Shown piece after piece: positions 3,536 through 27,644 of a stretch of 62,580 nt of DNA. The position numbers and the translations under genes were made by a program. The notes beneath the pieces are model-generated. The model worked only from the letters and a program-made list of their open reading frames with translations, did no database searches and had not been told where the DNA came from. The stretch comes from Nemertoderma westbladi. Its lineage: Eukaryota; Animalia; Xenacoelomorpha. Every line of letters begins with the position of its first letter. Positions within the stretch are counted from its first letter, which is position 1. Where the stretch lies: assembly GCA_032718475.1 (NCBI GenBank), contig JAUCBJ010008493.1, positions 1 to 62,580 on the forward strand. Direction: 5' to 3'.

Positions 3536-3575
3536 CAAGGACTACTGAAGCAGTCTTAAGCTTCAGTAGTCCTTG
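3536..3575. mobile_element. 40-bp P-superfamily-like transposon remnant / excision footprint
   Basis: Perfect 16-bp inverted repeat CAAGGACTACTGAAGC / GCTTCAGTAGTCCTTG around an 8-nt spacer, flanked by AGCAAAAG / GGCAAAAG (7 of 8 match). Confidence 0.55.
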
Positions 3576-7085: not shown

Positions 7086-7216
7086 GAAATATACTTTCTG
7101 ATCTTTTGAGGAATTTATCAGTGTGGTTTATTATAATTACATTTTAATTTTACTTGAAAATGTATCTGCACCAATACTTTATTTACTTTATCTACTTTAT
7201 TTACATCCATTACCAG

Positions 7217-8410: not shown

Positions 8411-9759
8411 CTGAATCATATTATTCTGCAACCAATAATTTACTCTTTTAGACGAATTAGTGCGTTTTTTTTGCCGGAATAAGAAATTCGAGATTGGCGA
8501 TATTTGAAAAGATTCTGAGGCTCAAATATGTTGCTCAGATGACTGAATATCTCAAATAAAAAAGTTGGTGCATACTCGATGAGTTGAAATCGGTGAAATT
8601 CGACTTCAAATTTTCAAAACCGCTATTTTTCAGTGACCCCTTGATCGAAACGCCACAAAAAATATACAGTCTTGTGCGCAACCAAAATTTATGTAGAGTT
8701 TGTTATTAAAATATTTGCGTACCTGCTGGAGTTTTTGAGATATTGGAGGTTTATACATATATACACACTCACACACACAACCACATCGTGTTTTTGAACG
8801 GCTCTACTCTTGACAAGAACTACCCTGGCCTATTAATAGGCAGGTTCGTTATAACTATTTATTTATGATCGGGTTTCAATTGTCCTAACTTCAATTTGCA
8901 ACACATTTCTAAACGCCGGCGATCCACCGCCCTGAGAAACGTAGGCGGTAACGTAATAACTATATGTTGAAGTCAGAGGAAATACTGTACAGTAACAAAA
9001 TGACGAAATGTGTTATTAACAAAGTTTCATTCACAGTCTGTGTTAGGGGCCTACCGTTCAGTTATTGCTCGTTTACTGGTGGTTATCTACATTCACCTAC
9101 ATTTCTTCGGCAATGTCGTCCCTCCTTGGACTATCCACATCAGACTGACAGTATATAGAGAGGGGGGGGGGGGGGGGAGGGGGGGGATTATCGTCGCAAT
9201 CAAAATTCATTCCTTTCCACTTCCCAGGGGATAATCTACGCTTATAACTGACTGATAACTCCCAAAAATAAAACTGTAACCTTTAAGTGTTCTCAAAAAA
9301 CAATATGACTTACCTGTGTTTTAGCCAATAGTTTTTAGTTAAAAAAATGCTCCCATAACGCGGCCATTATAAGACGATCCATTAACTATTTTACCTATTA
9401 TTTGTTATTTTTATTGCTGTCAGTCGCTTCTGTATCGGCTTCACTCTTATTGTTATGTTGTGAATAAATATATAATAATAATATTGTGTGTTCTCTGTTT
9501 GCACAAGGGATGTGGGAATGGTTCATAGGCATGATAATCTAACCAATAAACCAGTCAATAGCAAAGGTTACAGTTCCACTTTTGCTCGTATTCAGCTGGA
9601 ATTTTGGGTAGATTTCCCCTGGTCCAGGAGTGATTGTGGTTATCTTTTAGGATTTTCTTAAAATTAGGTGTAAATATTTTATAATTTAATTATTTATGAA
9701 ATTAATACTTCTTATAATTAAACTTGGGGACTAATTATGCTACATTGTTTGTACATAGT

Positions 9760-10965
9760 TGTTCGCGCTTTCAGACCTTTGGCAGTTTAACCCGCCAAAT
9801 TAGGATGTCTTTTAGATAATAAATCACTTTTAGCCTCTGACAAGTATTTGATTCACTACACTAGTCGAAACCAATCGGTGCGCGATCATTCACCCGCTGG
9901 ATATACCCGGGAGATTGGGTTCGACGGCTTAATCTTATTGCTATGTAAGCCTAATGTATTATTCGACTGACAGTATTATATAATCTCTGACAATATTATT
10001 CACCTTCGGGGAATATTAACAGTTCCTTTAGGACGTGGCGCTCTATCTATAAACAGAGTTATGACTTAAACTACTCACAACGATATGGCTTAGTTACAAT
10101 TCACATATATGGCGCATTCTTTAGGAAATGCTTCGTTATCAGTCTCACTCATACACAATGCTGCACAATACTGCACACTGATCTGCCGATCTTCACTGAT
10201 TTTAGTCACATATAAAAGGAACACGGACCGAATCATGTAGGGTCTATCAAATAACATTAGATTCACTTCAAACCACTTTAACATAAGTCACAATCGTTAT
10301 ATGTAACCTTTCTCTCTTACCTTCGGTATATCAAGAATATTGGGTTTTCGGGGTTATTTATCGTTATTCCAAATATAATAATTCATCAACAAATATAATG
10401 AATAACCGACAGCAAAGCAGTAATGTTAAGTAAGATAAATGCAATGAGATAACCAGTGAGATATTAAGTCAGTGAGTTGAGTCCAGTTTGATAACGGATA
10501 TATGTCCTTATAATTAAGCCTACTAGTGTTAGGCTAAAAGCAGAAAAGCACAAAATATTGCAAAGCCGTTCTTTCCTGGCTCAGGACAAAATGTAAACAC
10601 TGCCCATAACGCATTGCGTGATTTCTAGGAAATTTCTGTACAAGAGCCATAAAAATGCTCTGATTGGCAGACTGAACTGAGAGACGCCGTAGAACAAAGA
10701 AAATCGACACGTATGAATATCAGCTGTTAACCGTCGTCATAGTAACTACTGTTCAAGAGTAGCTATCACCTTTTGCGTCACGGAATTGCCATAGAATCAT
10801 CAACTATGCCTTCCACAGTACACATACGGAGGAAATAGCTCTTAGATCCTCTAAAAAACACCGATACAGTAATAATACGGTCTCTTACACCTATTAAATC
10901 AACTACAGAGTATTTTAATGTAAAAATAATAAAAATAACGGGGCAATTCAGCAAAGGCTTTTACA
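9760..10965 (-). repeat. 3' LTR (1206 bp)
   Basis: TGTTCGCGC...TTTTACA. Differs from the other LTR by about four substitutions and one 2-bp indel seen by eye. Confidence 0.97.
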
Positions 10966-10973
10966 CCGCTCCC
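10966..10973 (-). promoter_or_regulatory. Polypurine tract
   Basis: Minus strand reads GGGAGCGG immediately before the TGT of the 3' LTR, fixing element orientation. Confidence 0.75.
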
Positions 10974-11043
10974 AGAAAATGGGATTTTCAGTCTATAAAA
11001 TATAAAAATCACAGTTTCTAAAACCTAAAGATACTCTAAACAG

Positions 11044-12267
11044 TTAGTCTTTCTTACGCGGACGGCGTTTACGCAGTTTCTTGAGGCTAGCAAGAGTCCT
11101 TTTCTCTTTGGGGCGAGCCACTTTACGAGGAGGGCTGTAGCTCCTAGGCGAAGGGTGCAATACAATTGCATCAGAAGGTGTAGGGTTACGATCGGTATAC
11201 CCGCCGGTCGAAGTGCCTGGTTGATTAATATCAACCTTGGGGGAGCGAGGTCTAACGGCCTTGAGAGTGCGTCTCAGGACAGCAGCTCCTACGGGTCCTT
11301 GCCGGGTCGTCTGGACACTAGCGGTGGGTGGACCGTGAGTGGTGAGGAACTTTCTCGGTTTAATGGTTCTCTCCAGCTCGCGTTCTCGGGTTCGATATTC
11401 ATATGGTCGCCGAGATACTTCCTGTAGTTCAGGATGTGAGTTCACAAAGATGTCGCCATACTCAGGGTCCTGACGGATAAAATTGATCAGGTGATATGTG
11501 GTTATATCATTAGGGTTAACGTTTCTAAGGTATTTTCTGACAAACTTGGTGGAAATACACTCACCAACACGCTTCATTAACTCGTAACTTGGTACGCGTG
11601 TTTTCTGTTCAATCGACGCGAATAGATAAGGATGGAACGCGTAAACTCCCTCGTAAGCTCGTCCAGGGTAATAGCGATGTCGGGATTCGCAATGTAAATC
11701 CGCGTTCGCTTCCCAAGCTCGGATGTATCGCAGGGTGATCATCTCGTCTACGCTCTCTAAATCGCGATTAAAGGGACAATTGTAACTTTCATGTCCTTTA
11801 AGTTGACAGTAGTGACATTGAGTCATAAATTGTGGGCAGACGGCAAAAATATGAGAGTTATTAAGCCTGCAATAAGCACAATATACTTCCATCATCGGTT
11901 GTTCGAGGAAATAGGAACAAGGTACGCTCGAGTCTAGAGGGGTGAAGTGGTCTCTCGATGCGCATAATCGACAACGTTTTCGAGAAACGTAGTTGGCGTG
12001 TCGATAATCGTACGCTGTGAGACGTTGTGGACCTTGATACCACTCTATGACATAATCATTGTCACTGCTCCGGGAAGCTGTAGGCTGAATCGCTTCTGAT
12101 TCCAAGCATACTGGTTCATCTTCCAGCTGTATAGACGAAGTGGGTGCGTCTGTCTCAGTAAGTGGATCCACTGTCTGTATTTCCACGACAGAATAACCTG
12201 TAGGTATTCGGGGTCTTTGTATAACAGATGAATAAGTTCTGTATACAAACGTCTTGAAAAACTGCAA
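11044..12267 (-). CDS. Accessory ORF inside the retrotransposon: three CCHC-type zinc fingers and a basic C-terminal tail (true start unknown)
   Basis: 407 open codons in element sense. Contains CRLC-x4-H-x9-C, CAYC-x5-H-x4-C and CHYC-x4-H-x4-C; ends SPRSYSPPRK...KKLRKRRPRKKD. Starts at TTG, so probably joined to upstream sequence. Confidence 0.75.
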   Translation of the reverse strand: MQFFKTFVYRTYSSVIQRPRIPTGYSVVEIQTVDPLTETDAPTSSIQLEDEPVCLESEAIQPTASRSSDNDYVIEWYQGPQRLTAYDYRHANYVSRKRCRLCASRDHFTPLDSSVPCSYFLEQPMMEVYCAYCRLNNSHIFAVCPQFMTQCHYCQLKGHESYNCPFNRDLESVDEMITLRYIRAWEANADLHCESRHRYYPGRAYEGVYAFHPYLFASIEQKTRVPSYELMKRVGECISTKFVRKYLRNVNPNDITTYHLINFIRQDPEYGDIFVNSHPELQEVSRRPYEYRTRERELERTIKPRKFLTTHGPPTASVQTTRQGPVGAAVLRRTLKAVRPRSPKVDINQPGTSTGGYTDRNPTPSDAIVLHPSPRSYSPPRKVARPKEKRTLASLKKLRKRRPRKKD

Positions 12268-12958
12268 ATCCAGCGCTACTCAGTTTCTCCGCAGCTGAGT
12301 CTCTCAGACTGAGTTTGGTCAGCGCGCGGTCCTTGAACTGACTATCGACATTACGGAACGGAGTCAGAAAGCGCCGGAAACATTCGAAACGTATGAACTT
12401 ATTGTGTTCGTCTAACTTGGCGAGTTTAGTTCCAAGTATTAATGGGTGAGCGCGTATGGTACGACTGCACACATCGGCTAGCCAACCGGCAAGTGCTGCG
12501 TTTTCAAAGATCGTGTATATAGCTAAGGAAGGGCGAAGTGGAACACTCATAAAGCTATATACGGCACCAGGCGCAGTTAATGGTCCATCAAAATATAAAC
12601 GAGAGTAATGATCTCCATATACTTGCTGGTAATTGATAGGATTTCCAACTTTGAAATTCCATCCATATTCTTGAAAGGCAAGATGTCCGATGGATGTCCG
12701 TTGTACTTTAGTAATGTCGCTGGGTGTATTGGCATACGTAGTGCGGAAGAAACCTCGGCCTTCTGCCCAAGGAGCAAAGCAATCAGCTGAGTATCAACGA
12801 AGGGGTATGGAATGTTCTCCATATTCCTGTGGTATGCCCAATATGTTTTCCGACAGTGACAGTGATGGTAGAGCAGAGGAAAAAACTATTTCGCATTCTA
12901 AAATATTCAGAAATAAGATCTCAGTAGGAGGATTGTAACATTCGAGGACTATCTCCAA
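12155..12958 (-). pseudogene. Upstream segment of the accessory coding region (interrupted or spliced)
   Basis: The frame of ORF 12155-12550 stays open upstream to 12958 apart from one TGA at 12794-12796. It follows ttcag| and overlaps the 407-aa ORF in another frame. Confidence 0.45.
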
Positions 12959-13645
12959 CTGAATTTATCCCCAGTGCGATGAGGGAACAACCAGTTCAAT
13001 GCCTCAGTTGTTCTACATAAGATTATAAGATTTATATCTCCAATCATTGAGGGAGGTGAACAACCAGATTTATGACACACAATGGTACCAGTTGTTCATA
13101 GATTGTCTACGTATCCTTTCAGTCCTTGAATCACGGTCGTGGACTTGAGGAAATTAGGAAGTGGTTGATTTTCTAATCAAATCAACAACAATGGTGAAAG
13201 TTGATATCATAAATATCAACAGAATGGTACAGGGACAGGAGGTGCGGACACCAATATTAGCATCCAGATTAACAGTAAGGGATGGGAGGTTTAGTGATCG
13301 TTTCCCGAAGCTCCGAGCGCGTTGGGAAGAGAAGGTGGGGCGAAGTATGTTGTATTTTCAATAGCGATGTATAGAGGGATAAAGGGAGTAAAGAGGAGGA
13401 AGGATATATGGTAGTATCCATAAGATACCACAATGAACGAGCTTTCCGTTACGTCATCATTCATTCTTGTCTTTTAATTGTGACACTGATCACAATAATT
13501 ACAGGAAAACGATGAAGGAAGAGAAATTTACAGCCTCCCAAAGGAGACCGCCCGCGAGCACCCGTGCCCCGGGGAAAACTATTCACATTATGGACCCTGG
13601 ACATTAACACACGTCTCTTCTCCAGTGGTTCGCCTATATTTGTCT

Positions 13646-14044
13646 TTACAAGCCTTCTTCCACGTCCTTTCTTTCGAGCTGATTTCGAATAGAGTTCTCG
13701 TGTTCTATTCTCGATTTGTCGTTTCGACTCCGCTGGGTATGATATTTAAATAAAACCATTTCCCTTTCGGTGTCAACATCGTCGGTGTCGTGTAAATCAA
13801 TAGGATGACCAGTAGTCAGGAGGTCCATATACGTACCATTACGATGCGTATAGCGAGCAGTGAATTTTCTATAGTCCAATTCACGCGTAAGTTGCTCCTG
13901 GGACATTGGCGGTTCGATATAACGACCATCGTCCTCCGTAGTAGTTGGATCAGCGTCGCCGCGTATCAAGCTATCGACAAACGCTTGTAAAGGTAGAGTA
14001 TATCTCTCCCTGATACCAAGATCATCTTCTATTAATTCAGTCAT
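13646..14044 (-). CDS. 132-aa acidic ORF inside the retrotransposon, unknown function
   Basis: ATG-initiated, element-sense, protein-like composition; preceded by tatagcag| (possible acceptor). Confidence 0.5.
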   Translation of the reverse strand: MTELIEDDLGIRERYTLPLQAFVDSLIRGDADPTTTEDDGRYIEPPMSQEQLTRELDYRKFTARYTHRNGTYMDLLTTGHPIDLHDTDDVDTEREMVLFKYHTQRSRNDKSRIEHENSIRNQLERKDVEEGL

Positions 14045-14516
14045 ATCTGCTATACGAGTTCACCAATATTATAATGAGTTTATATATTTATTAGGCGAGC
14101 GGGCGTCGCTGCCTACTTCTCCCTTGCCCCCGGACAGTGTGAGATTCTCAGCGCCGATGTACCGCTGTCGCTGTACTTTCGCCAACGACGTAGCCGTACA
14201 ACGACAACGATAACCGGCACAAGTCACTCCACTGTCCGTCCCAAAGGCTTATATGTACTTCAGGTTTTCCTTGGAGAGTTAGGTTACTTTCACGATTGCG
14301 ACTAGCTACTGTAAACACACTTTAGCAGTAACATTCACCTATAAACTCACAAATACCACACAACTGGTCACAACTACGCACATTCGGGCCATTTGTCCGT
14401 TAGTCAATGCCTTCCAGAATGTCACTATATTATTATGTATCCTTGGATACTAGCAGTGAGCTATTTATTCCCTATGCTATTCAATGGGACAAGCTTTCTA
14501 TTGTTCTTTTAACTCA

Positions 14517-15158
14517 ATTCTAATTCTAGCGTGGTTGTTGCTATGGTGACATTATGTAAAGCTAGCGGTAGAATTAGGGTAATTCCCATGCATACAGATC
14601 TGGGATGTTATTTAATAGTAATTCTTTAATAGTCAATGTCCTGTTTGATACATGACTTTATGAATTTTATCGGCTATTGACTATGTTCGGGAGACTTTTG
14701 CACACTCATACGCATAATAAGATAAATCTCCGCTCCCTTGATCTATTAATTAGTGGAATTTTGGGAATGTTATAAATTGCGTAAAATGGCAATTTATTAA
14801 ATTCATTAAAAGGCATGAATTTAAATTTATTCCCTGAAATTTTATTATTTGATAATTAAATGGACATATTTTGAGTCTAGAACATGTCTGGGGACACAAG
14901 ATCCTTAATTCTATGAAAATTGTCTTTTTAAGAATATCGGTAAATGCTACGATATCTTAATTGACTAGAATTGTTGAAGGATCTGAATTTTACAGATTTG
15001 ATTTATTAGATTTGCAAATATTAAATAATTAATATTTGAGATGGGCACCAATTTATTCCAGAACATGTCTGGGGACGTTAACCACTGATTCTAGAATTTG
15101 TCTTTCAAGTATATCGGTGGGTGCCGCGATATCTTAATCGACTAGAATTACAGATGGT
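14517..15158 (+). ncRNA. Cluster of at least four long imperfect hairpins (candidate structured RNA)
   Basis: Stems at ~14517-14580, ~14630-14687, 14899-14984 and 15081-15158. The last two lie in a ~181-bp diverged duplication with compensatory outer stems. G-U type pairs occur on the plus strand. Confidence 0.5.
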
Positions 15159-15693
15159 CAAAGGGTTTAACAGATTTATTTTGCGTTATACGCTACTGTT
15201 AAAGGGACATCACGCTACTATATGTATTATTTAATATACGGTATGAGAGCAATATCGCACGAAGCAATGTCAGTGTGAAGAGGCAAGTCGTTTCCAAGGT
15301 CTACCCAGAGCTTGGTTTAGCCGAGACACGAGGATCTGAACTTTGCATTCCTAATACTCTGCCTACCAATAATACTTGAATATAGTAGTGGCTTTATTGT
15401 ACTTTAATAAGTACGGACATTTCATCTTACTGTAGTTACGTATTTATAATATAATACGGACAGTAAGGAAAGAGAAAAATAATTATTTCTCGCCGTCGCA
15501 CTAAATATAATATAAGTAATTACGTACGCAATAAACACGAATATATTGCACTATTCTACTAAATAATCGCTAAATAATATTCTACTAAATTAAATAAAAC
15601 GATTATAATAAAATTACATAGTAATACATACATAAATATAAAAATAATAAAATAATATAAAATAATAGAGTCACACGCCCACTCCGAACAATA

Positions 15694-18600
15694 TTAAGTT
15701 GGGGAGTCCCTAGATGTGGGTTGGATTAGGGAAGTGGTCGTGGGAAGAGTTTCTTGCCTTCCATAGTTTCCGGAGAGTTCTCTGTCTCTTTCCGGTAAAC
15801 ATAAACGACCCACTGGGCGGTTGAGCTGTTGAGTCTCAAAGACTATCTCTGGTTTCTTAAAGTTACGCCGCATGACGACGAGTTCTACTGATCGCACCAA
15901 ACCATCGCTCGAGATATGAGTCTCGATGATACGTCCTGTTTGCCATCGCTTACGTGGGAGATCGGGGTCCACAATAAGCACCATGTCTCCAGAGCTGACG
16001 TTTTCCTGCTGCGCAAACCACTTAGTTCGAAGTTGTAGAGTGGGCAGGTAATGTTTCTCGAAATGGTCAGCGAAACGACGGGATAGCAACTGCATAAGTT
16101 GCCAGGTTCGACGGCAGTACTCGTCTCCGTCTGTGATCTCCGATCGTGGGAGCATGGCTACGGGTTTCTTCAGTAGAAAGTGCGCGGGTGTTAGCGCTTC
16201 CAGGGAATCAGGACTTGAAGAGACTGGCATAAGCGGTCTTTCGTTGAGATAGGCGGCGATTTCCTCCATTAACGTCCGCAATAGTTCGTCGGTGAGATAA
16301 GCGCGACAAGGTACAATAAAGTGGAACGCAGTCTTCACGCTCCTAATCAATCTCTCCCAACTTCCTCCCCACCAAGGGGCGTCGGCGGCGTTGAAGGTCC
16401 AGCTAGACGCTGTTATCTTTAGCTGATCGTCCACCTGTCTTTTGTTCCAGTCCTTTACGTAAGCTTGAATTTCGTTGTTGGCGCCAATGAAGTTCGTTCC
16501 CTTATCCGATCTCATCGTGTTACTGGTTCCGAAACGAGCGATCTGTCGTCGTAAACTCAACACGAAGCTGTTGGTGGATAGATCGTTTACCATATCGAGA
16601 TGGATAGCTCTACAAGTCATACAAACGAAGATGACACACCATCTCTTGACTATAGTCCGGGCACGATATACTTCAATAGGGCCAAATAAATCCACACTGG
16701 TATTAGTAAAGGGTGGTTCATAGAAGCTTACTCTTTCCCTAGGTAATTTGGCCTCTCGCTGTGTCAAAGGCCTACTGAATGCTTTCCTACAGGGTATGCA
16801 GTTCCTAAGGACTTGGTTCAGAGCCCTACGGGGTTTATAAAAATAGAAGCGAGTTCGAATTTCGCTCAGAACTCGTTCTCTTCCAGCATGATACAGTTTG
16901 CTATGAACATCTACGATCATCTTGATTTGTATGTCAAGATTTCTAATGAGTATGGGAAATTTAGTGTCAAAGGATAATGGGGCGTTGGTAAGCCTGCCTC
17001 CAACACGTATTAACCCATCTATCATGGTGCTAGAGAAGCGATCCCTTAAGCGCATCTGCGGATTTCTTAACAACAGGAAATACTTATCGGGATCTTCATA
17101 GCATTGTAGGAGTCTCAGCATCTGTTTGTTGGTTTCATCATGCTCCTGGTAACTGATCTTCTCCTTTAGAAACCTGTCGGATATCTTGTATTTGGGAAGA
17201 TCTTTAACAACATGGACTCGTGCAGACGTTGATGAAGCATCATCACTATTGGTCTTTGTCCCGGAGTAACGATGATGAAAACATCGTTTTAAATAGGTGA
17301 CGGCTTTACAGAGCCGATTCCAGGAACTGTAGTGACGTATCGCTCTCTGCAAGAGGGGTGAGAGTCCTTGCGCGATATCTGGTATTCCAGATTTCCAATC
17401 CTTGTCACGGATTTCCAAGACTTCTTTAGTCGTGGCGGTGGGTTTCTGATCCAAAGCATCCTCTCCGGAAGTAAATAATACAGATAGATCAACCGCAGGT
17501 TTAAACAACTTCGATTTACTCGCTCGAGTTTTGGGTTTAACTTTCTCCACTCCCTTGGCCTGTCTGATCTCTGCTGTTGTGAGATGGGGAGGCCATTCTT
17601 CTTCTTCTCTGTAGAGAAAGTCGGGTCCACCTAACCATTCGGGAGTATTTACCAATTCCTTTGGAGTCGCTCCTCGGGAAGCGAAGTCTGCTGGATTAAT
17701 CGTTCTGGGGCAATGTCTCCATTGGTCCATCGTCATGCGACTAAGTATGATGGCTACTCTGTTGGTAACGAAGACGCTGAACTGACAGACTTCATTGGTT
17801 ATATACTCTAACACGAGTAAAGCGTCGGTCCAATAGACAGTTTTCTCTAATGGATAGTCAATCTGTTCTGTTACATTCCGGCCGATGGCTGTAGCGTATA
17901 GAGCCGCTTTTAACTCCGCTCGAGGAACTTTCAACTTGTTGTTGATTAATGCCTTAGAAGTAACCAAGGCGACTTTGATTCCATCCGGAGTTTCCACTCT
18001 TAGATAGGCTACTATACCTATTCCCATATCGCTGGCGTCTCCAAACACATGGAGTTGATAGGAATACGTAGGGAGAACATGACCAAAATATGAACGGGAA
18101 ATTATAAAATCCTCGATAGCCGGCAGAGAATCTTCCCATTTCATCCACTTCTTTAATAATTCTCCCTTAAGTGGATCGTCCCATGAGTGGTTTTCAAGCC
18201 ACATTTGTTGTACCAAACTACGAGCAATCAATATAACTGGGCTAATAAATCCCAATGGATCGAAATAAGTGCTCAGTATACTTAAGCAAATCCGTTTGGT
18301 TCGAACTGGATTATCTCGCTGTTTTAGCTGGAAAAACAGGATATCTCGCTCTGTGTCCCATTTCAAGCCGAGTGTCTTGGTTTCTGGCAGATCATCTTTG
18401 ATCAAATCTAGATCTTTCGCCCCTCGATCTTTCGCAGGGATCGACTCTAGAAACTCACGGGAGTTGCTGGTGAATTTCGTTAATCGAAACCCACCTCTTT
18501 TTAAGCACTCTACCGTTCCTTTAGCGACCTCAATGGCTTCCTCAACTGATGGAAGGGACTTCAGATTGTCGTCCATGTATATGTCCCGCTTGATGTTGTC

Positions 18601-21600
18601 GATCACTTCCTTAGAGAAGGCCTCTCGGTTGTCCTCTGCAGTGGTACGCACTACCGAACAGGCGTTGGAAGGGCTTGAGATTATCCCAAAGGCCTGGATG
18701 GTCATCCAGTACTCCACCGGTTTCTGGTTGAGGTCTCCTTCGGGCCACCACAGAAATCGTAGACTATCTCGATCCCTATCTAACACCTTGACTTGTAAGA
18801 ACATGCCTTCTATATCGGAGGCGAAAGCAATCGAATATTGTCTCAATCTTAAAAGAATTCCCAACAAAGATTGAAGTAAGTTGGGTCCGGGTAACAATTC
18901 AGAGTTAAGGGATTGACCCATGTAAAGAGCGGAGCCATCAAACACTACTCTCACTTCATGTGGTTTACCGGGTTTAGGAACGTAATGGTGAGTTAAGTAA
19001 TACGTTCTTTCAGTCACAGGTGTTTCTTCCGGTACTCTCTCCGCGTATCCCTTACTAATAAATTTCTCCAGCTGTGTTTGATACATTTCTTTAGCTGAAG
19101 AATTGGCCGTAAGGCGTCGATGGAGTTGCGCGATTCTTTTTTCCGCCAAGGGTCTGTTATTGATGAACTTCGGTTCTCTCTTGCGGAAAGGTAGACCGAC
19201 TTCATACCTACCTTGATCTTTGAGGAAACGTGTAGTTGTCTCTTGGATCTGCTTGGCCCTTTCCTCTTCCACCGACAAGGCTTTATCGTAGGAATTGGGC
19301 TCTACCGCCTCTTGCGTAAAGAATCGTACGGCATGTTCATCTCGAGTCTTGGCATTACAACACTCAATGACGTCATTTAGCTCGTCGTTATAAGCTTCTC
19401 GTTCAGATGGATAAAGAAGTTGACATAAGTTCACTTGGTTTTGCCAAGCCTCGTTTTCCTTAAGGAGATCGATGGTATTCTCCTCATCAAAAAGCTGGTG
19501 AACGTCGTCGTTATCTGAGGAGTATGGAGTTCCCTCAGTTAAATCGTCTCCCTCACTAGTATCATCTTCCCATTCACTCACCTGGCAGACGAGCTCTTGC
19601 GGTAGTCTTTCTCTGAGTGTTCTACGGGAAGGGCCAGTAAAGTACCAACCTACTCTAGTTCTTACCGCATAGGTCTGTAGTGGCTGCGGTTGAGCAGGCC
19701 GTTTCTCTAATGTCTCCAGCGCCTCATGCGCGTTTTGGCCGATGAGTATTTGCACTCCAGGATAATCAGTCTGGAATCGAGGTATGTTAAGATGTTGGAT
19801 GCTCTCATCCTCGTCCCAATTATAAAGGTCTGCTTGAGTAGTAGCGAAGTTCTTTATAGCCACCATTTTCACTGACCTTATGCTATGTTCTCCTAGTTCG
19901 TCCTGGGGGGTGGACAACGCGCCTACATAATAATCCGCTGTTATTGTAGATTTCCAAACTTGCATAATGCCTGACATGTTTAGCTTAGTTCGGAACTTGG
20001 GTTGTCCAGCGAAGATGTCTTCGGCTAGTTCTTTATCAATGAATGTTCCTGTGCTGCCGGAGTCCAGGAGGGCGTTCACTATATAGCTCTTCTGAGGTCC
20101 ATGGACCCGTAACTGGACTACAGGAAATTCTCGGATTCCTACATCGGAAGTTGGTGCTTTCCATGATGGTTGTCGATCAGAAGTAGTTAGAGTGAAGTCG
20201 CTGTCTGTATCTTTTTCATATGTGAGTGCTCGATACACTGCGGTATTTATCATGTAACAGGATTCGTTTTCGTCGGAGAACTCGTCCGTATAGAATCCTT
20301 CCATCTCAGATTGATCAGTGTCGTTCACATCACTGAATTGGACATGTAGTTCGGAATCACTTACCTGATTAGGACTATTTCGATCGAATTCAGCGTGCAA
20401 CAAGATATGATGTTTCGCACCACACTTTGCACACCTTATGTCAGAGTAACAGGTTCGCCGTTGGTGTCCTTGTCTGAGGCAATTATAACATAACCGCTTA
20501 TCCCACATGACTTCGCGTCTCTCCGTTAATGACTTCTTCAGGAATTCATCACACATATTCAAACGGTGGGTCCCGTCACACAGCGCACATTTCGGTTTGA
20601 TGTTACTTACCTTATTTTGGGTGACAGTGTGCACTCTCGTTCTTTCTTCGGGCTTTCTTACCTGAATTCTCTTGGGAGACGTAGGAGGAGTTTTTCTTAC
20701 CTGTTCTCTCTTGTCATTGGATCGAGACTTAAATTTACTTCCCTGTTCGTTAGGTGTTTTATTGACATAATAAGATCTTTCAGTGTCTTTCCCGCTATCC
20801 TCCCCTTGGGAAGCTTGGCTTTCGCCGTCGTCGGTATAACACACTGGTGTTACCTTTCTTCTGGGGACGGGTTTCTCACTTACCTTGTTTTCCGATGTCT
20901 TCTCTCTGGACTGCTTTATGAGCTGTAATTTCACTTCGCCATCCAAGAATGTCATGAGATCAGTCATGGTAGGGTCTCGTTGTTGTTGTTCCATCATGTA
21001 TAACACTTTCTTGTCCCAGCGTGTACCTACTCCACCCTTCGGTAAAGTAGAGGCCACTGCTCTAATAACCATAGCACTCTGATACTCATGAGACTTACCT
21101 AGCCAATCTAATTGTCGGCAGATCTCCTGAATTTCATCGGAAAACTCTATAATCCCGTTGCTAATAAACTTTCGGGGCGCTACCAACTTTGCATACAAAT
21201 ACCCAGCTATGTTATTCCTATTACCATACCTGATGTTTAGTGTATCCCAAACTTGTCTTAATCCGTCTGGATGTCCAATAAACTTTAACGCCATTAACTT
21301 GGGAGATCCTTCCAAGCACTCGATGAGGAATCTAAGTTTCTCTCCATTAGATAGTACAGAGTTCTGTATGTTATCTTTGTAATATTCATTAAAAGGTAAC
21401 CATTTCATCTCATCTCCATTGAACTTGACGATCTCTCCCACCTTCACCGCTTGCCGGGCTTCGGTTCTAGCCATTTGACGCGTAAAACTTTCTTGGGCCA
21501 TCGTGTTATTTAATATCGAGTTATCGGTATATAAATTTCTCGGATTATGATCAGGTCTATAGGGAATGTCATTATCAACAGGTCTATAATTACCCTTAAT

Positions 21601-23820
21601 AGGGTTCACTATAGGAGTTTCTACGTCGCTAGCAGTATATATGCGTGTAGGCTCCACACCTTGCGCATGAGATACTTCAGACCTAACAGGTTGACACATT
21701 GTTACCGAGGGTGGTGGTATACCTCTTTGTGTATTTACTAATTTATCGCGTTCTAGCGCGATACTTTGCTGCACTTCTTGCAACTCTAGCCTACTTTCCC
21801 TTACTGTGCCCTTGAATTGCTGAACAGTCTCCTGCATCTGCCCGAGCAGGAGATCCATCCCCCGCCGTCTCTCGTCCACCCATTCGACCGCAGAAGCGGG
21901 AGTCGCCAACGTTGTAGCGGGCGGACGAGGGACAACGGGCGACAAATCATGAATATTTCGCTCGGGGTCCAGGACCTGAACTGTCTCATGGGCTGTTCTA
22001 CTGGGCACAGATAGCTTAGTGCTATGCAGAGGGAATTTAGAGGTAGCTTCAGGGAGCACAGGTGTGTCTATCACCGAAGGGGTGATTTCAATAACAGGCC
22101 TAATTATTTCAGGCTCATCTACTATAGTAGGGAGTCTTTCTATTTTAATTATTTGGTCTGTGGGCTCTGTACTACCTAAGTTGGTGTTATTTAGTTGCCT
22201 TCTAACAGCTGGAGGCAAATCAGGCAATTTCTGACGGTGGAATGTTCTTTTACGTCTGCTTAGACGAGATCTATTTCCTTTGCCTTCAGTATCGGTGGTA
22301 TCGCCTTCCTCAGATGATGTATATCCCTGTCTTTTGGGAGTAGATCGATTCATCATCTGCATATTACTAGCTGTTAACTGTTTATTTATGCAGTCTTGAT
22401 TCTCCTGAATGTTTTCCAATTCTAATTGGGTGGTTTCTTCAGTCGCTCTCCGTTCTGCTTCTGCCACTGCCTCTGCCGCCTTTCTTTCAGCTTCGGCCGC
22501 TTTTGCTTCTGCCGCTGCCTCTGCCGCCTTTCTTTCAGCTTCGGCCGCTTTTGCTTCTGCCGCTGCCGCTGCCGATTTTGCCTCTGCCGCTGCCTCTGCC
22601 GCTGCCACTTTTCTTTCTGCTTCTGCAGCTACCACTGCTGCTTTCTTTCTGTCTTCTATACGTTTTTTCTTTACTTGTTCTTCTTGGACTCGTGTCAGGC
22701 GGAGTTGTTCATCAAATTTAGCCTGATTCGCAGCCCTCATTTCCACATCGATGGCATCCAACACACGCTGAGTTCCTTCGCTATTAGGGCTAAGTCCATC
22801 TAACCTTCTCCTCAACTCGTCATCACCTAAAAAACGTTGATAATCTGACAGATAGATGTCAATGGCATCTCTCTTATGCGGTTTCTCTGCCGTCGCTTCA
22901 CTTTCCACTTGGGAAAAAGTAGCGTCTGTTGATTCTCCATGGGTTGAGCGCTCCTCCAGCTGAGCTTTCCACTGAGCTGTTCCTTGAACCTGGCGACTCA
23001 CCCGTTGAAACCAAGTCTTTACGGCAACTTGCAACGACGTGTCTTGTCTTCTTTTAGAAGCCTCTTCAAAGGCTGATAATATTAGCCTGATTCGCAGAAT
23101 TCTTTCTCTAACTTGATAAAGCAGTTGTCCCTGCTCTTGAGGTCCTTGAGGTTGTTGTAACAGTTGTTTTTCTATTCGCTCCATAGAGCTGAAGAATCCC
23201 TGTGCGTATCCGGCTGCGGACCTCTTCCACACAGCTGGATCGATGGTTTCCTTGGCTACTCCCATCCGGTGTATGTCTTCCCAGGCAGCTTCTGATAAAT
23301 CAAACGGGAGTCCGGGTCCGGGGAAGTTCCATTGCGACTCGACAATAGACTTCAGTTCTTCCCTCGTGTATCCCGCATAACTATCTCTAGTTGATCGCTG
23401 ACTTCTCGCCCAATCGATCTGGTGTTCTTCCACCGCAATCAATAACCTAGTGAGTACGGCTGCAGGAAGGATGAGAAGGGGATCCGAATAAACCGCATCC
23501 GTCATCCTTGCTCCGCGCTCGGGTGTCAGTTCTACAGTATCTTCACTACTGGAGCTGTCGGGCCGCTGAGAAATAATTTCTTGGCTCACGGGTTGTTGCT
23601 GTTCCGCTGCTTCTTGGTCCCGCTTGACCTGAGCTCGAGTGCCTATGATAGACCTACGATGTTGGACCAGCCTAGGTTCTGTTATTACTACGGGAGGGAT
23701 GACCTTCCTCACAGTGGGAGGTGAACTGAACTTACGACTAGACGGTTCTACGCCTCTATCTGAGTCGCAGATAGTTACATCTAATAAACTGTCTGACAGG
23801 TTCTGCTTAGTATCAGACAT
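15694..23820 (-). CDS. Bel/Pao gag-pol polyprotein (2708 aa)
   Basis: In order: DUF1759-like KFNGDEMKW, triple zinc knuckle (CALC..H..C, CYNC..H..C, CAKC..HH), protease ALLDSGS, RT VRVVFDGS/DIEGMFLQ/YMDD, RNase H HVFGDAS/PRAELKAA, integrase H..H..CIPC, DLFGP, SDKGTNF, WERLIRSVK, DUF5641-like tail. Confidence 0.97.
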   Translation of the reverse strand: MSDTKQNLSDSLLDVTICDSDRGVEPSSRKFSSPPTVRKVIPPVVITEPRLVQHRRSIIGTRAQVKRDQEAAEQQQPVSQEIISQRPDSSSSEDTVELTPERGARMTDAVYSDPLLILPAAVLTRLLIAVEEHQIDWARSQRSTRDSYAGYTREELKSIVESQWNFPGPGLPFDLSEAAWEDIHRMGVAKETIDPAVWKRSAAGYAQGFFSSMERIEKQLLQQPQGPQEQGQLLYQVRERILRIRLILSAFEEASKRRQDTSLQVAVKTWFQRVSRQVQGTAQWKAQLEERSTHGESTDATFSQVESEATAEKPHKRDAIDIYLSDYQRFLGDDELRRRLDGLSPNSEGTQRVLDAIDVEMRAANQAKFDEQLRLTRVQEEQVKKKRIEDRKKAAVVAAEAERKVAAAEAAAEAKSAAAAAEAKAAEAERKAAEAAAEAKAAEAERKAAEAVAEAERRATEETTQLELENIQENQDCINKQLTASNMQMMNRSTPKRQGYTSSEEGDTTDTEGKGNRSRLSRRKRTFHRQKLPDLPPAVRRQLNNTNLGSTEPTDQIIKIERLPTIVDEPEIIRPVIEITPSVIDTPVLPEATSKFPLHSTKLSVPSRTAHETVQVLDPERNIHDLSPVVPRPPATTLATPASAVEWVDERRRGMDLLLGQMQETVQQFKGTVRESRLELQEVQQSIALERDKLVNTQRGIPPPSVTMCQPVRSEVSHAQGVEPTRIYTASDVETPIVNPIKGNYRPVDNDIPYRPDHNPRNLYTDNSILNNTMAQESFTRQMARTEARQAVKVGEIVKFNGDEMKWLPFNEYYKDNIQNSVLSNGEKLRFLIECLEGSPKLMALKFIGHPDGLRQVWDTLNIRYGNRNNIAGYLYAKLVAPRKFISNGIIEFSDEIQEICRQLDWLGKSHEYQSAMVIRAVASTLPKGGVGTRWDKKVLYMMEQQQRDPTMTDLMTFLDGEVKLQLIKQSREKTSENKVSEKPVPRRKVTPVCYTDDGESQASQGEDSGKDTERSYYVNKTPNEQGSKFKSRSNDKREQVRKTPPTSPKRIQVRKPEERTRVHTVTQNKVSNIKPKCALCDGTHRLNMCDEFLKKSLTERREVMWDKRLCYNCLRQGHQRRTCYSDIRCAKCGAKHHILLHAEFDRNSPNQVSDSELHVQFSDVNDTDQSEMEGFYTDEFSDENESCYMINTAVYRALTYEKDTDSDFTLTTSDRQPSWKAPTSDVGIREFPVVQLRVHGPQKSYIVNALLDSGSTGTFIDKELAEDIFAGQPKFRTKLNMSGIMQVWKSTITADYYVGALSTPQDELGEHSIRSVKMVAIKNFATTQADLYNWDEDESIQHLNIPRFQTDYPGVQILIGQNAHEALETLEKRPAQPQPLQTYAVRTRVGWYFTGPSRRTLRERLPQELVCQVSEWEDDTSEGDDLTEGTPYSSDNDDVHQLFDEENTIDLLKENEAWQNQVNLCQLLYPSEREAYNDELNDVIECCNAKTRDEHAVRFFTQEAVEPNSYDKALSVEEERAKQIQETTTRFLKDQGRYEVGLPFRKREPKFINNRPLAEKRIAQLHRRLTANSSAKEMYQTQLEKFISKGYAERVPEETPVTERTYYLTHHYVPKPGKPHEVRVVFDGSALYMGQSLNSELLPGPNLLQSLLGILLRLRQYSIAFASDIEGMFLQVKVLDRDRDSLRFLWWPEGDLNQKPVEYWMTIQAFGIISSPSNACSVVRTTAEDNREAFSKEVIDNIKRDIYMDDNLKSLPSVEEAIEVAKGTVECLKRGGFRLTKFTSNSREFLESIPAKDRGAKDLDLIKDDLPETKTLGLKWDTERDILFFQLKQRDNPVRTKRICLSILSTYFDPLGFISPVILIARSLVQQMWLENHSWDDPLKGELLKKWMKWEDSLPAIEDFIISRSYFGHVLPTYSYQLHVFGDASDMGIGIVAYLRVETPDGIKVALVTSKALINNKLKVPRAELKAALYATAIGRNVTEQIDYPLEKTVYWTDALLVLEYITNEVCQFSVFVTNRVAIILSRMTMDQWRHCPRTINPADFASRGATPKELVNTPEWLGGPDFLYREEEEWPPHLTTAEIRQAKGVEKVKPKTRASKSKLFKPAVDLSVLFTSGEDALDQKPTATTKEVLEIRDKDWKSGIPDIAQGLSPLLQRAIRHYSSWNRLCKAVTYLKRCFHHRYSGTKTNSDDASSTSARVHVVKDLPKYKISDRFLKEKISYQEHDETNKQMLRLLQCYEDPDKYFLLLRNPQMRLRDRFSSTMIDGLIRVGGRLTNAPLSFDTKFPILIRNLDIQIKMIVDVHSKLYHAGRERVLSEIRTRFYFYKPRRALNQVLRNCIPCRKAFSRPLTQREAKLPRERVSFYEPPFTNTSVDLFGPIEVYRARTIVKRWCVIFVCMTCRAIHLDMVNDLSTNSFVLSLRRQIARFGTSNTMRSDKGTNFIGANNEIQAYVKDWNKRQVDDQLKITASSWTFNAADAPWWGGSWERLIRSVKTAFHFIVPCRAYLTDELLRTLMEEIAAYLNERPLMPVSSSPDSLEALTPAHFLLKKPVAMLPRSEITDGDEYCRRTWQLMQLLSRRFADHFEKHYLPTLQLRTKWFAQQENVSSGDMVLIVDPDLPRKRWQTGRIIETHISSDGLVRSVELVVMRRNFKKPEIVFETQQLNRPVGRLCLPERDRELSGNYGRQETLPTTTSLIQPTSRDSPT

Positions 23821-23949
23821 GTTTATGTGTACAGTTGAATGTCTACTGCTGTATTACAGTCTGAGCAAGTCTAGTAACTCAGTATTAACTGCTAGCCTAG
23901 TAATTAATTACCGATACTGCTACTCAGTGTAGTGCGATATATATAATAT

Positions 23950-24205
23950 ATTAGAATACCGGTATGCTTATAGTATATAACTATATAAGTATTATTACAT
24001 ACTAGGTTTATCACAGAATACCGGTATAATTTTAGCACAAATATATATAAATATATAATAGGCCTATCGGGAATACCGGTATACAGCTTACAGCTTGTAG
24101 TATATATAATTCTGGACTAGAATTAATTACAAGTACCGGTATAGTTTCAGCCTAAATTTATAGAAATAAAGATAATAGGCCTATTGTAAATACCGGTATA
24201 TCAAT
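23950..24205. repeat. Five degenerate ~55-62-bp units each containing palindromic TACCGGTA
   Basis: taccggta at about 23958, 24019, 24074, 24134 and 24191 in the element leader; related taccgg motifs again at 25835-26020. Confidence 0.7.
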
Positions 24206-25130
24206 TATTTTAAATAATTGAATTTCTAAACTTTAGGGTTACTTGGTTACTTTACTTACTTTATTACCGTTATTTGAGCAGTAATCCAACTGATATTGAG
24301 ACCTAATGGTTGTATGGTAGGCCTACTATTTATAAATCGTTAGATTTGATTTATAATATATATATACCCGTTTTAATGGGTTTTGTCGATGTTTGAAATA
24401 AATGTTATTATTTCTGGGGAGTAATCACTACACAAAGCGGTGCGCTTTCAGTGAAGTGTTACTTATAGGACACTAAAACAAATAATACTAATTTACCTAA
24501 GTTACTTAATACTACAAATTACTTACAATTCGGGTGAGATTACAATCTCTAAATAAACACAAAAATTTACAAAAAACACAAAATACGAATTTTCAGGGTA
24601 ATTTTACAAGAAGTCTACAAACCAGCCTAACAAAGGGTTAGAATCTGGTTATTACAACGGACAGGGTACTGCGGTATTTGAAAATAATACGTAGTAGTAA
24701 ATACACTGCGTTGTCCAGATAGGAAAATACCACCGCCTGACGACCTATAGCCGTATCGCTATAGGTACTACGTTATGTATCACGGAGTGTTCCTACCTAG
24801 AAGTTAATAGAGCTAATCGAACGTGCCTATCAACCACTTTACAATACAAATATAATGTCTACACTAATTACTTTCGGAAAGCACTGTACACTAAACCCTA
24901 AATTAGGTACGAGTACTTGTACAACATATAATCAGTAGTTAAATATACTTGAACAGCTAAAAGAACCACGGCATCTGCTGGAGTGACCGGTGCACAAAAT
25001 CACCAGTCTTTACCTACGCCAAGCAGCCCGTGTAGTACCGGGGTTAATTTAACTATAACGGTATGTATAACAAACACAATTATTGTAGGAACAAACTTGG
25101 GGAATGAATGTTGCGAATAATCGCATAAAC

Positions 25131-25711
25131 TCTGAATAATAAATATTACGCTACGCGTACAAACCACTCAAACAAAATGCAGACCAAATACTGACAGACT
25201 ACTATCAAGCCTAAATAAACTACAGGACATGCAGACTCCGAAATAGTTAGGTAGTATGCGTTCTAACCCAGTAGTACGACTTATTCTTTAGGTGGGGGTT
25301 TACCTTACAGCTTTGGCTGCCCCTACTTCCTAACCGTTCTTTATCGGACAGAGGCTCTACACACACTGCAATCCGTTCAGACCTAATAACAGCCAGACAA
25401 CTATCCAGCCTACAAATTATCTAAATAAATATTATACGCTACCTGTACAGACTACACAAACAAAGTACAGACTAAACGATGGCAGACTACTCTCAAGCCT
25501 AAATAAACTACAGGACATGCAGACTCCGAAATGATTAGGTAGTATGCGTTCTAATCCAGTAGAACGACTTATTCTTTAGTTGGGGGTTTACCTTACAGCT
25601 TTGGCTGCCCCTACTTCCTAACCGTTCTTTATCGGACAGGTGATCTACACACACTGCAATCCGTTCAGACTTAACAGCAATCAGACAACAGCCCAGCCTA
25701 CAGATTGTCTG
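25131..25711. repeat. Tandem duplication, ~288-bp period, in the element leader
   Basis: cagactact..caagcctaaataaactacaggacatgcagactccgaaat starts at 25195 and again at 25483, with high identity over ~225 bp. Confidence 0.9.
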
Positions 25712-26063
25712 TACAATATGATCAGGCTTACACGCCTTCTGTTCAATACTGGCCTACAAACAAATAAAACTGACAGAAATAAGTAAGCTCCAAAAGAAAC
25801 AAGGGGTGTACAGTCCCTAATCTCTTAAACAGCCTACCGGTATACAATAATCAAATCGAATAATACTAATGTACTTATACGGGAAGTACCGGTTAGGACA
25901 GTTAGGCCTACGGACCTACAGAAGTACCGGTTCTGGCAGTTGGACCTACGGACCTACGGCAGTACCGGTTCTGGCAGTTGGGCCTACTGACCTACAGATG
26001 TACCGTTCAGGTTTACCGGTTGACTGGTACTTTCAACTTTATTGCTTACTGCAATAAAGAAAC

Positions 26064-26075
26064 TATATCCGTTAT
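26064..26075 (-). promoter_or_regulatory. Primer-binding-site position; non-tRNA-like, complementary to LTR 26807-26818
   Basis: Sense sequence after the 5' LTR is ATAACGGATATA, with no TGG in the next ~70 nt. The LTR sense strand contains TATATCCGTTAT. Confidence 0.55.
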
Positions 26076-27279
26076 TGTTCGCGCTTTCAGACCTTTGGCA
26101 GTTTAACCCGCCAAATTAGGATGTCTTTTAGATAATAAATCACTTTTAGCCTCTGACAAGTATTTGATTCACTACACTAGTCGAAACCAATCGGTGCGCG
26201 ATCATTCACCCGCTGGATATACCCGGGAGATTGGGTTCGACGGCTTAATCTTATTGCTATGTAAGCCTAATGTATTATTCGACTGACAGTATTATATAAT
26301 CTCTGACAATATTATTCACCTTCGGGGAATATTAACAGTTCCTTTAGGACGTGGCGCTCTATCTATAAACAGAGTTATGACTTAAACTACTCACAACGAT
26401 ATGGCTTAGTTACAATTCACATATATGGCGCATTCTTTAGGAAATGCTTCGTTATCAGTCTCACTCATACACAATGCTGCACAATACTGCACACTGATCT
26501 GCCGATCTTCACTGATTTTAGTCACATATAAAAGGAACACGGACCGAATCATGTAGGGTCTATCAAATAACATTAGATTCACTTCAAACCACTTTAACAT
26601 AAGTCATAATCGTTATATGTAACCTTTCTCTCTTACTTTCGGTATATCAAGAATATTGGGTTTTCGGGGTTATTTATCGTTATTCCAAATATAATAATTC
26701 ATCAACAAATATAATGAATAACCGACAGCAAAGCAGTAATGTTAAGTAAGATAAATGCAATGAGATAACCAGTGAGATATTAAGTCAGTGAGTTGAGTCC
26801 AGTTTGATAACGGATATATGTCCTTATAATTAAGCCTACTAGTGTTAGGCTAAAAGCAGAAAAGCACAAAATATTGCAAAGCCGTTCTTTCCTGGCTCAG
26901 GACAAAATGTAAACACTGCCCATAACGCATTGCGTGATTTCTAGGAAATTTCTGTACAAGAGCCATAAAAATGCTCTGATTGGCTGACTGAACTAAGAGA
27001 CGCCGTAGAACAAAGAAAATCGACACATGAATATCAGCTGTTAACCGTCGTCATAGTAACTACTGTTCAAGAGTAGCTATCACCTTTTGCGTCACGGAAT
27101 TGCCATAGAATCATCAACTATGCCTTCCACAGTACACATACGGAGGAAATAGCTCTTAGATCCTCTAAAAAACACCGATACAGTAATAATACGGTCTCTT
27201 ACACCTATTAAATCAACTACAGAGTATTTTAATGTAAAAATAATAAAAATAACGGGGCAATTCAGCAAAGGCTTTTACA
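26076..27279 (-). repeat. 5' LTR (1204 bp)
   Basis: Direct repeat of 9760-10965; followed by TSD ATAGT. Confidence 0.97.
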
Positions 27280-27644
27280 ATAGTACTGATTTTACTGCTA
27301 TTAACTCCTTTTTTACTCATACAGAGTGTAAATAAAATAAAAAAAATAATTAAATTTGAGAAAATTCCATAAAAAATTATCGGTGAAATCAACGTTTTCA
27401 CACTTCTTCAACGACGAAATAAAAATAAGCTTTTTTTTCATAAGTTTTCCTGTCGTTTCACGATGCTACTTTAAAAAATAATATAGGCCTACATCATTAA
27501 TTAACAGTTGCATTAACAGCTCATCTCCAATTTATTTAATTGAAAAATAATAAAACTAGGCCTTACAAATTGTCGAAAGGTTCATTACCGTGTTCTGAAC
27601 CTGCTATTTTAATTTTCGATCACTCATGTTTTCCTTCACTCTAC

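Follow-up and report, generated by a model that had tools for sequence, protein, structure and literature searches.

A 17.5-kb Bel/Pao Element of Nemertoderma westbladi with a Predicted Self-Primer, Clustered Splice-Donor Motifs, and a Non-env 3′ Cassette

An Intact, Oversized Bel/Pao Element

We analyzed a stretch of 62,580 nucleotides (nt) from Nemertoderma westbladi (Xenacoelomorpha; GenBank assembly GCA_032718475.1, contig JAUCBJ010008493.1), hereafter the window, and focused on a Bel/Pao retrotransposon with long terminal repeats (LTRs) that occupies positions 9760–27279 (17,520 bp) on the minus strand; element features given below lie on that strand. An annotation made by a model from the letters alone, here called the sequence-only reading, had described a 17.5-kb element with near-identical LTRs, a perfect target-site duplication (TSD), an intact gag-pol, a 2.25-kb leader, and 4.7 kb between the pol stop and the 3′ LTR, and our measurements agree with it throughout. 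The LTRs, both with TG..CA ends, are 1,204 nt (5′; 26076–27279) and 1,206 nt (3′; 9760–10965) long and 99.5% identical, differing by four substitutions and one 2-nt indel, and the 5-bp TSD is perfectly matched between its left (9755–9759) and right (27280–27284) copies. One open frame encodes a gag-pol polyprotein of 2,708 amino acids (aa), from the ATG at 23820 to the stop at 15694; a leader of 2,255 nt (23821–26075) precedes it, and an interval of 4,728 nt, holding what we call the 3′ cassette, extends from the pol stop to the 3′ LTR. The element is intact and was inserted recently, and it is almost certainly an autonomous Bel/Pao element carrying a 3′ cassette of its own.

The polyprotein consists of a coiled-coil-like repeat, DUF1759, three Cys/His boxes (beginning at aa 1078, 1111, and 1130 and spanning aa 1078–1143), protease (PR; DSG at aa 1253), reverse transcriptase (RT; YMDD at aa 1748), ribonuclease H (RNase H, RH; DAS at aa 1928), and integrase (IN), with Pfam matches to Peptidase_A17 (PF05380, E 9e-36), DUF1759 (PF03564, E 3e-10), DUF5641 (PF18701), and Integrase_H2C2 (PF17921). 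The order PR–RT–RH–IN is Pao-type, and pol is not of the Gypsy type that marks the Tf1/sushi group. A homologue search with the RT–RNase H region gave 646 matches with a best identity of 44%; among the 120 matches listed, all contained PF05380, and the organisms named were echinoderms, cnidarians, a mussel, amphioxus, a hemichordate, a pseudoscorpion, and fish. No locus came up in RT-based scans of viral contigs. By its sequence, the polyprotein places the element in the Bel/Pao lineage.

The element shares with described Bel/Pao elements a Gag with three Cys/His boxes, the PR–RT–RH–IN order, PF05380, PF03564, and PF18701, TG..CA LTRs, and a 5-bp TSD (PMC8742986, PMC3118150; all papers apart from PMC8742986 are cited for the accessible portions of their text), and its LTR length, LTR ends, TSD, and purine tract beside the 3′ LTR (10966–10973; 8 nt, seven of them purines) are all as expected for the group, in which LTRs measure 0.2–1.2 kb. 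The Belpaoviridae profile, however, gives genomes of 4.2–10 kb with gag, pol, and at most env, and an 18-nt primer-binding site (PBS) for tRNA-Arg or tRNA-Gly (PMC8742986), whereas this element has a length of 17.5 kb, no such PBS, a non-env 3′ cassette, and at best 44% identity over RT–RNase H. As it departs from the profile in size and tRNA PBS, we regard it as a variant of the lineage and not as a typical member. Length by itself does not set it apart: de novo Bel/Pao calls have a median of 7.4 kb and reach 16–23 kb, in a table that is silent on nested insertions among the maxima (PMC3118150).

A Primer-Binding Site Complementary to the LTR

The replication of Bel/Pao elements is poorly understood and described as tRNA-primed (PMC8742986). 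We judged the presence of a tRNA-type PBS by the occurrence of TGG in the first 30 nt past the 5′ LTR, and none occurs there; no tRNA, Rfam family, or hammerhead core with stem II was found anywhere in the element. The PBS, of non-tRNA type, comprises the 12 nt that directly abut the 5′ LTR (26064–26075), and these are exactly complementary to nt 462–473 of the LTR (26807–26818; 10491–10502 in the 3′ LTR copy), the predicted self-primer. Of 15,099 internal 12-mers, this is the only one complementary to the LTR, and it lies at offset 0, with 0.00025 expected from base composition. A published rule predicts self-priming from an LTR complement of at least 10 nt located within 0–5 nt of the LTR (PMC6317226), and the present complement, with 12 nt at offset 0, falls inside these bounds. 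We consider that reverse transcription of this Bel/Pao element is probably self-primed. In the literature within reach, covered by listings and openings of abstracts and excluding most subscription journals and Repbase, no self-priming Bel/Pao element came up.

In the predicted fold of the RNA, the duplex of PBS and primer closes the structure (z −3.8, 20 shuffles). Its pairing probability is 0.83–1.0 for RNA starting at 26818 or 26830, 0.22–0.26 for a start at 26860, and 0 for a start at the beginning of the LTR; since the probability falls as the start is moved upstream, self-priming needs transcription to start at or near the primer. A motif at 26836–26846, 28 nt upstream of the primer, is a candidate core-promoter element. 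The window contains a solo LTR of a diverged sister family (56336–57572, minus strand; 1,237 nt; flanks alike at four of five positions) that is patchily similar to the LTR of the element and keeps its last 55 nt (84%), a donor-like splice site, and the upstream motif. Nine of the 11 letters of this motif are common to both LTRs, and in the solo LTR it lies 29 nt upstream of the homologous site, which fixes the register for comparing the primer sites. That both the donor, at about LTR nt 642, and the motif are kept in an LTR of such patchy similarity fits a transcription start near nt 462.

Further copies were represented by contigs from four runs, three of which share one species label and one of which is possibly the window's own sample. 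The runs contain 147,843, 37,850, 1,277, and 853 contigs over the element, at identities from 99+% to <90%, and these numbers and this spread indicate that the family is large and diverse. At the solo LTR, loose contig ends begin with the first two PBS letters in excess (13 of 58 in run X1, 3.8 expected; 12 of 50 in run X3, 3.2 expected; P ~7e-5 each, with 12 of the 45 rows of loose ends listed and with X1 and X3 coming from one species and thus not independent). The excess in both runs suggests that the start of the PBS is common across the lineage, and a tRNA-type CCA end is present in neither of the two majority cells (X1, X3). The majority cells differ from the element at PBS positions 5–6, and the primer site of the solo LTR, compared by eye, has a matching change; this apparent co-change gives weak support to self-priming. 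Diverged contigs also leave out the sequence immediately 3′ of the primer and resume alignment next to it, at 10483–10490 and 26802.

Several observations weigh against self-priming. The duplex is outcompeted if the RNA begins at least 40 nt upstream, there is no TATA 30 nt ahead of the primer, and a TATA-like block at LTR nt 977–1009, common to the solo LTR, could mark a later start. In the loose ends, the complement of at least 10 nt that had been predicted in advance did not appear (X3 matched at 9 of 11 positions with a run of 8, and X1 had a run of 6), and the cells of both runs are mixtures with an agreement of 0.47–0.51. The conserved TATA-like block and the poor duplex in folds starting far upstream also speak for a different reading of the complement, in which it serves long-range pairing between the 5′ and 3′ ends of the genomic RNA, with the site in U3, or marks where a separate small primer RNA ends, with a tRNA fragment or another RNA acting as the primer; half-tRNA priming at non-TGG sites is known (PMC6317226, PMC10886601). 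We consider this improbable. The complement stops exactly at the LTR boundary, where the 3′ end of a primer is required to lie, the conserved donor at nt 642 is easier to understand if that segment is transcribed at the 5′ end, and the search for tRNAs and Rfam families in the element gave none.

The leader that follows the PBS is poor in ATG, with 6 on the sense strand against 44 expected (CAT, 23 against 38; p 0.0003), and contains internal duplications of 288, 117, and 38 nt. The depletion starts at the PBS: LTR nt 643–1204 are not depleted (9 against 11.8), as expected if this segment is spliced out of the translated RNA. Windows of the leader fold modestly better than the flanks (mean z −1.07, p 0.005). 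A perfect 9-bp hairpin (26030–26059) begins about 5 nt past the PBS and encloses a candidate splice acceptor at 26048.

Splice-Donor Motifs Clustered in gag

The sense strand of the element contains eight donor motifs of the form AG|GTRAG and the antisense strand none. Six perfect motifs lie within 735 nt of gag (20359–21101), with last exon bases at 21099 (phase 1) and at 20884, 20701, 20662, 20611, and 20365 (phase 0), and a seventh gag-pol donor follows at 19582. Synonymous shuffles of gag-pol had a mean of 1.25 donors, against the seven observed, and none of 5,000 shuffles reached six in 750 nt; the flanks contain five in 26 kb, counting both strands. Among 40 listed sequence differences between copies, none hits a donor, while eight of the 40 fall within 20356–20419. 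The donor-like site at LTR nt ~642 (26631–26639) has a noncanonical −1 base in the 5′ LTR; it is canonical in the 3′ LTR copy (10315–10323) and present in the solo LTR (56840, nt 733).

Candidate acceptors number six in the 3′ interval and nine in the leader, and the first one in the leader (26048) lies 16 nt past the PBS. An acceptor in phase 0 with the gag donors (12126) is located just beyond the stop of a 212-codon open frame and ahead of the first zinc knuckle of a 411-codon frame, both described below, while phase-1 candidates lie at 12762 and 12522, and a further candidate at 10992 lies within a segment (10966–11010) that ends in the short purine tract abutting the 3′ LTR. Encoded in a single frame, gag-pol needs a route to excess Gag, and plant Copia elements achieve this by splicing (PMC5580714). 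The 212- and 411-codon frames, in turn, have no ATG before codons 82 and 129, respectively, in keeping with their expression by splicing. We think it rather likely that the gag donors serve spliced expression. Alternatively, the donors could be U1-binding sites that guard against early polyadenylation, by analogy with plant Copia (PMC5580714). In the accessible literature, we found no paper on clustered splice donors in Bel/Pao elements.

Two points weigh against splicing. The acceptors were chosen by a crude criterion of pyrimidine content, and intron ends occur in none of the 15 listed contig joints (of 168), the runs being DNA or of merely presumed RNA origin.

The 3′ Cassette and Its Zinc-Knuckle Frame

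The cassette starts with a noncoding, AT-rich block (14045–15693) that was described as structured in the sequence-only reading. That description fits one long hairpin at 14131–14238, just ahead of the cassette ORFs (open reading frames), with 44 predicted pairs and −65.2 kcal/mol (z −7.1 on the sense strand and −3.4 on the antisense strand), a candidate cis element. The block as a whole is structured only modestly: its mean z is −1.33 (13 nonoverlapping windows), against −0.28 and −0.13 in the flanks (39 and 27 windows; p 0.016), and the leader reaches a similar level, so that structure does not distinguish the block. The block also contains a 97-nt duplication and nine sense-strand AATAAA, against 2.0 expected and four on the opposite strand. 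The LTR has no AATAAA, which counts against the model developed below, and a gag-pol RNA might terminate in the block.

Downstream of the block, the sense strand contains ORF-A (13646–14044; 132 aa from its ATG), two small ORFs of 47 and 57 aa with mildly hydrophobic stretches (13291–13604), and open frames of 212 (12155–12793) and 411 (11044–12279) codons. The 47-aa ORF ends in a stop that overlaps the 57-aa start (13461–13464), an arrangement resembling termination–reinitiation that could be due to chance. At E ≤ 0.1, Pfam and NCBIfam gave no match for the 132-, 212-, and 411-codon ORFs, nor for the 47-aa ORF, scanned within its 94-codon frame. No env was seen: the highest 19-residue hydropathy in the ATG-started cassette ORFs is at most 1.81, and with no family match for the three largest and no strong hydrophobic anchor we rejected an env identity, in line with the earlier description of accessory ORFs that do not look like env.

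The first ATG of the 212-codon frame is at codon 82, and upstream of the frame lie a single stop and, beyond it, about 60 more open codons in the same frame. The 411-codon frame encodes three Cys/His knuckles (aa 103–169) and a basic tail with 28% Lys/Arg in its last 60 residues, as the sequence-only reading had proposed in a zinc-finger/basic ORF; its first ATG is at codon 129, after knuckle 1. Because it has no start of its own before that knuckle, the frame more probably encodes part of a fusion than an independent protein. A +1 frameshift may instead join the two frames across their 125-nt overlap (window z −2.2), although an in-phase acceptor is the simpler reading.

A full-library homologue search with the 411-codon frame gave two weak matches. 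The first, P0001, shares generic knuckles only and was dismissed as a relative. The second, P0002, matches at E 4.9e-4 with 26% identity over 177 aligned positions, reaching past the knuckles into a common helical region, and contains the knuckle domain twice. From this alignment, we take the 411-codon ORF to contain a real triple-knuckle domain with one distant relative. Against this stand the weakness and singularity of the match and two other homologue searches, with the 411-codon frame and with a two-sequence profile, that gave no relative beyond P0002; Atlas leads for the frame were confined to generic CCHC clusters below 0.9. P0002 itself had no plasmid match, and a metagenome scan returned only its own contig (L001). 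There, the P0002 gene is followed (2064–3685) by a purine tract and by a TG start at 2073, then by a TGG site at 2963 and, from about 3390, by an acidic frame, and through this sequence of features P0002 resembles the 3′ gene of an LTR element. P0002 may thus be the last gene of such an element, possibly of a collapsed copy read through its LTR, on a contig that ends before any pol. Unlike the element studied here, L001 shows no self-primer, its best complement being 9 nt, which again counts against our interpretation.

The 212-codon frame had no match in Pfam, NCBIfam, or the PDB, nor to the N-terminal part of P0002 (best E 1.2); P0002 itself escapes Pfam as well. Predicted structures were of low confidence, with predicted local distance difference test (pLDDT) scores of 31.8 for the 212-codon frame and 34.0 for the second model.

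The Cassette in Other Copies

The sequence-only reading would have been weakened if the 3′ region were absent from sibling copies or were a nested insertion, and the evidence goes the other way. All 30 bins are covered by contigs in all four runs, some of the contigs being <90% identical, and diverged contigs lie inside the cassette, with 40 differences in 215 nt (11504–11718) and 58 in ~390 nt (12181–12571). The interval has no internal terminal repeat and no A-run of 7 or longer, the 97-nt duplication and one palindrome being the only repeats, and a nested insertion as its origin is ruled out on these grounds.

Of 40 listed sequence differences (of 3,824), 33 could be classed, the seven dropped being in noncoding DNA. 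Silent changes make up 15 of 28 in gag-pol, one of one in ORF-A, and one of three in the 411-codon frame, with one difference outside the four frames. Gag-pol and the cassette ORFs are free of the 12 listed indels (of 370), in a listing that favors deep positions. Weighing against a shared, maintained cassette, two of the three listed differences in the zinc-knuckle frame alter the residue, the summed depth over 11391–13778 is several-fold lower than over gag-pol (depth not being equal to copy number), and contigs in run X4 skip 12072–13686 and 11299–11504. Some members of the family may thus be missing the cassette middle or carry a diverged version of it.

The interval might also be decaying captured DNA that is carried passively, with the donor cluster and the LTR complement being coincidences. 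The stop that splits the frame upstream of the 212 codons, the missing starts, and the near absence of relatives would agree with this, but such decay sits poorly with 411 open codons containing a conserved domain, with the lack of listed indels in gag-pol and the cassette ORFs (biased by depth as this is), and with a donor cluster and a complement at frequencies of 0 in 5,000 and 1 in 15,099. We therefore regard passive carriage as very unlikely.

A Combined Model and Its Relation to Known Elements

In the model that we favor on balance, the 5′ end of the element's RNA serves as the primer for reverse transcription, and splicing gives rise both to the product of the 3′ zinc-knuckle frame and to a Gag-only product. 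Our confidence in the combination is lower than in either part, although not by as much as for independent claims, since priming and splicing share the inferred start site. Transcription would start at 26818 or a few nucleotides before it. If the RNA stays unspliced, its first 12 nt would pair with the PBS across a loop of 731 nt, and a cut by RNase H after nt 12 would free a 3′-OH, as in Tf1. From RNAs that are translated, the PBS would be removed with an intron reaching from the LTR donor (nt 642) into the leader. Splicing from the phase-0 gag donors to the acceptor at 12126 would join the N-terminal part of Gag to 360 aa comprising the knuckles and the basic tail, and splicing to 10992 would give Gag with a short tail. 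In the least supported step, the zinc-knuckle product would bind unspliced RNA, perhaps at the hairpin 14131–14238, and permit its escape from splicing or nuclear retention, as for the Cer1 protein CERV.

For the function of the zinc-knuckle product, we see two possibilities of equal and limited plausibility. One is a Rev/RRE-like system, in which a stand-alone zinc-finger/basic protein binds the hairpin block and controls the export or stability of genomic RNA. The strand-asymmetric hairpin (z −7.1), the basic tail, the eight strong donors that an unspliced RNA has to survive, and the precedent of CERV (PMC10309623) are consistent with this; the missing start before knuckle 1, the leader being as structured as the block, and the lower depth and deletion variants over the cassette middle are not, and we hold such Rev-like action, proposed by analogy, as no more than tentative. 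The other possibility, held just as tentatively, is that the exon is a second nucleocapsid module, in which splicing from 20611 swaps the Gag knuckles for the 3′ ones, or encodes an anti-silencing protein, the cassette then being a degenerate gene of the P0002 kind, with exonuclease and knuckles, that counteracts small-RNA control by the host. Donor 20611 (aa 1070) lies eight residues before Gag knuckle 1 and is in phase with the acceptor at 12126, the best Atlas lead for P0002 is DNA_pol_A_exo1 with zf-CCHC (0.86, a lead only), and DEDDy ORF3s are known from rotifer LTR elements (PMC5408684). The exonuclease version is opposed by the dissimilarity of the 212-codon frame to the N-terminal part of P0002 and to Pfam, NCBIfam, and PDB entries, and its application to that frame is tentative, drawn from an impression of motifs.

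A wider scenario would tie these features together, and we offer it as a speculation that is unlikely to hold in full. An undescribed Bel/Pao lineage would have independently evolved tRNA-free self-priming coupled to splicing: pairing of the PBS with the first 12 nt of the RNA would mark that RNA as genome by masking the branch region that belongs to the acceptor 16 nt downstream, while unpaired RNAs would lose the PBS and be spliced from the six gag donors to one of several 3′ exons. One of these exons would supply Gag with a second nucleocapsid that can be swapped in, or with a Rev-like module that acts on the long hairpin.

Among known systems, the priming site resembles those of Tf1, Tf2, and Tj1, of Tf1-sushi elements (Gypsy), and of TAR elements (Copia), in which the PBS is flush with the LTR, complementary to a site inside it, and not of tRNA type (PMC4600332, PMC5341516, PMC6317226); in Tf1, Tf2, and Tj1 the primer is the transcript start (PMC4600332, PMC5341516). 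The present element differs in its superfamily and its 731-nt loop, and its start and cleavage are predicted from sequence. Whether hairpin or self-priming is ancestral or has arisen repeatedly is a question already raised (PMC3601003). If true, self-priming in a Bel/Pao element would extend the mechanism to a third LTR superfamily after Gypsy and Copia and bear on this question. The element would then be independent of tRNA primers and, by extension, insensitive to silencing by tRNA fragments, which could help to explain the large family.

The cassette has a parallel in the organization of Cer1 of Caenorhabditis elegans (Gypsy), whose accessory protein CERV comes from a spliced mRNA that shares Gag exons (PMC10309623), as predicted here. 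Splicing and export are demonstrated for CERV (PMC10309623), whereas here a triple Cys/His knuckle is involved and expression is predicted. If true, the element would add another, independent instance of a spliced accessory protein of the CERV kind, and the parallel removes much of the novelty of the regulatory-system idea. Nematode Bel elements of the Cer7 type reportedly have accessory ORFs and an element-encoded, tRNA-like internal primer RNA, which could reduce the novelty further. Unlike in that system, the complement here lies in the LTR, and no tRNA-like gene was found in the element. Extra non-env coding sequence downstream of pol and large size are also seen in rotifer Vesta and Juno, planarian Burro, and plant Ogre, although these belong to Gypsy-like or rotifer-specific lineages and have other domains (PMC5408684, PMC6431247). 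The complex-retrovirus-like regulatory system of the sequence-only reading was thus upheld in part: the cassette belongs to the element and comprises a knuckle/basic protein, a hairpin ahead of the ORFs, and splice signals by which regulated export would be required, but the pol is Pao-type and not retroviral, and there is no env match and no strong hydrophobic anchor as in Retroviridae. The interest of the element rests more on its likely self-priming and on the donor cluster, which points to a testable route by which Bel/Pao elements with a single frame could produce excess Gag, than on its size.

Neighboring Sequences

Outside the element, the window contains two long, apparently intronless, host-like frames. 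One (31142–33592, plus strand) has 816 uninterrupted codons and a weak Folliculin match, and we take it to be SMCR8-like; the other (60940–62229, minus strand) has 429 uninterrupted codons with PH and SH3 domains and is presumably SKAP-like. A non-LTR RT frame (36076–37822, minus strand; Pfam RVT_1, E 7e-34) lies within a 39-nt satellite array (34493–47248); its reading frame continues open into the satellite, and its N-terminal part is missing. Apparent decayed fragments of non-LTR retrotransposons were noted by eye at 53852–55521 (plus strand) and 6645–7127 (minus strand). Two satellites with strong strand skew, each of 161 copies, are found at 27645–30217 (16-nt unit) and 50010–53382 (21-nt unit), and the Bel/Pao element is inserted about 360 nt from the former.

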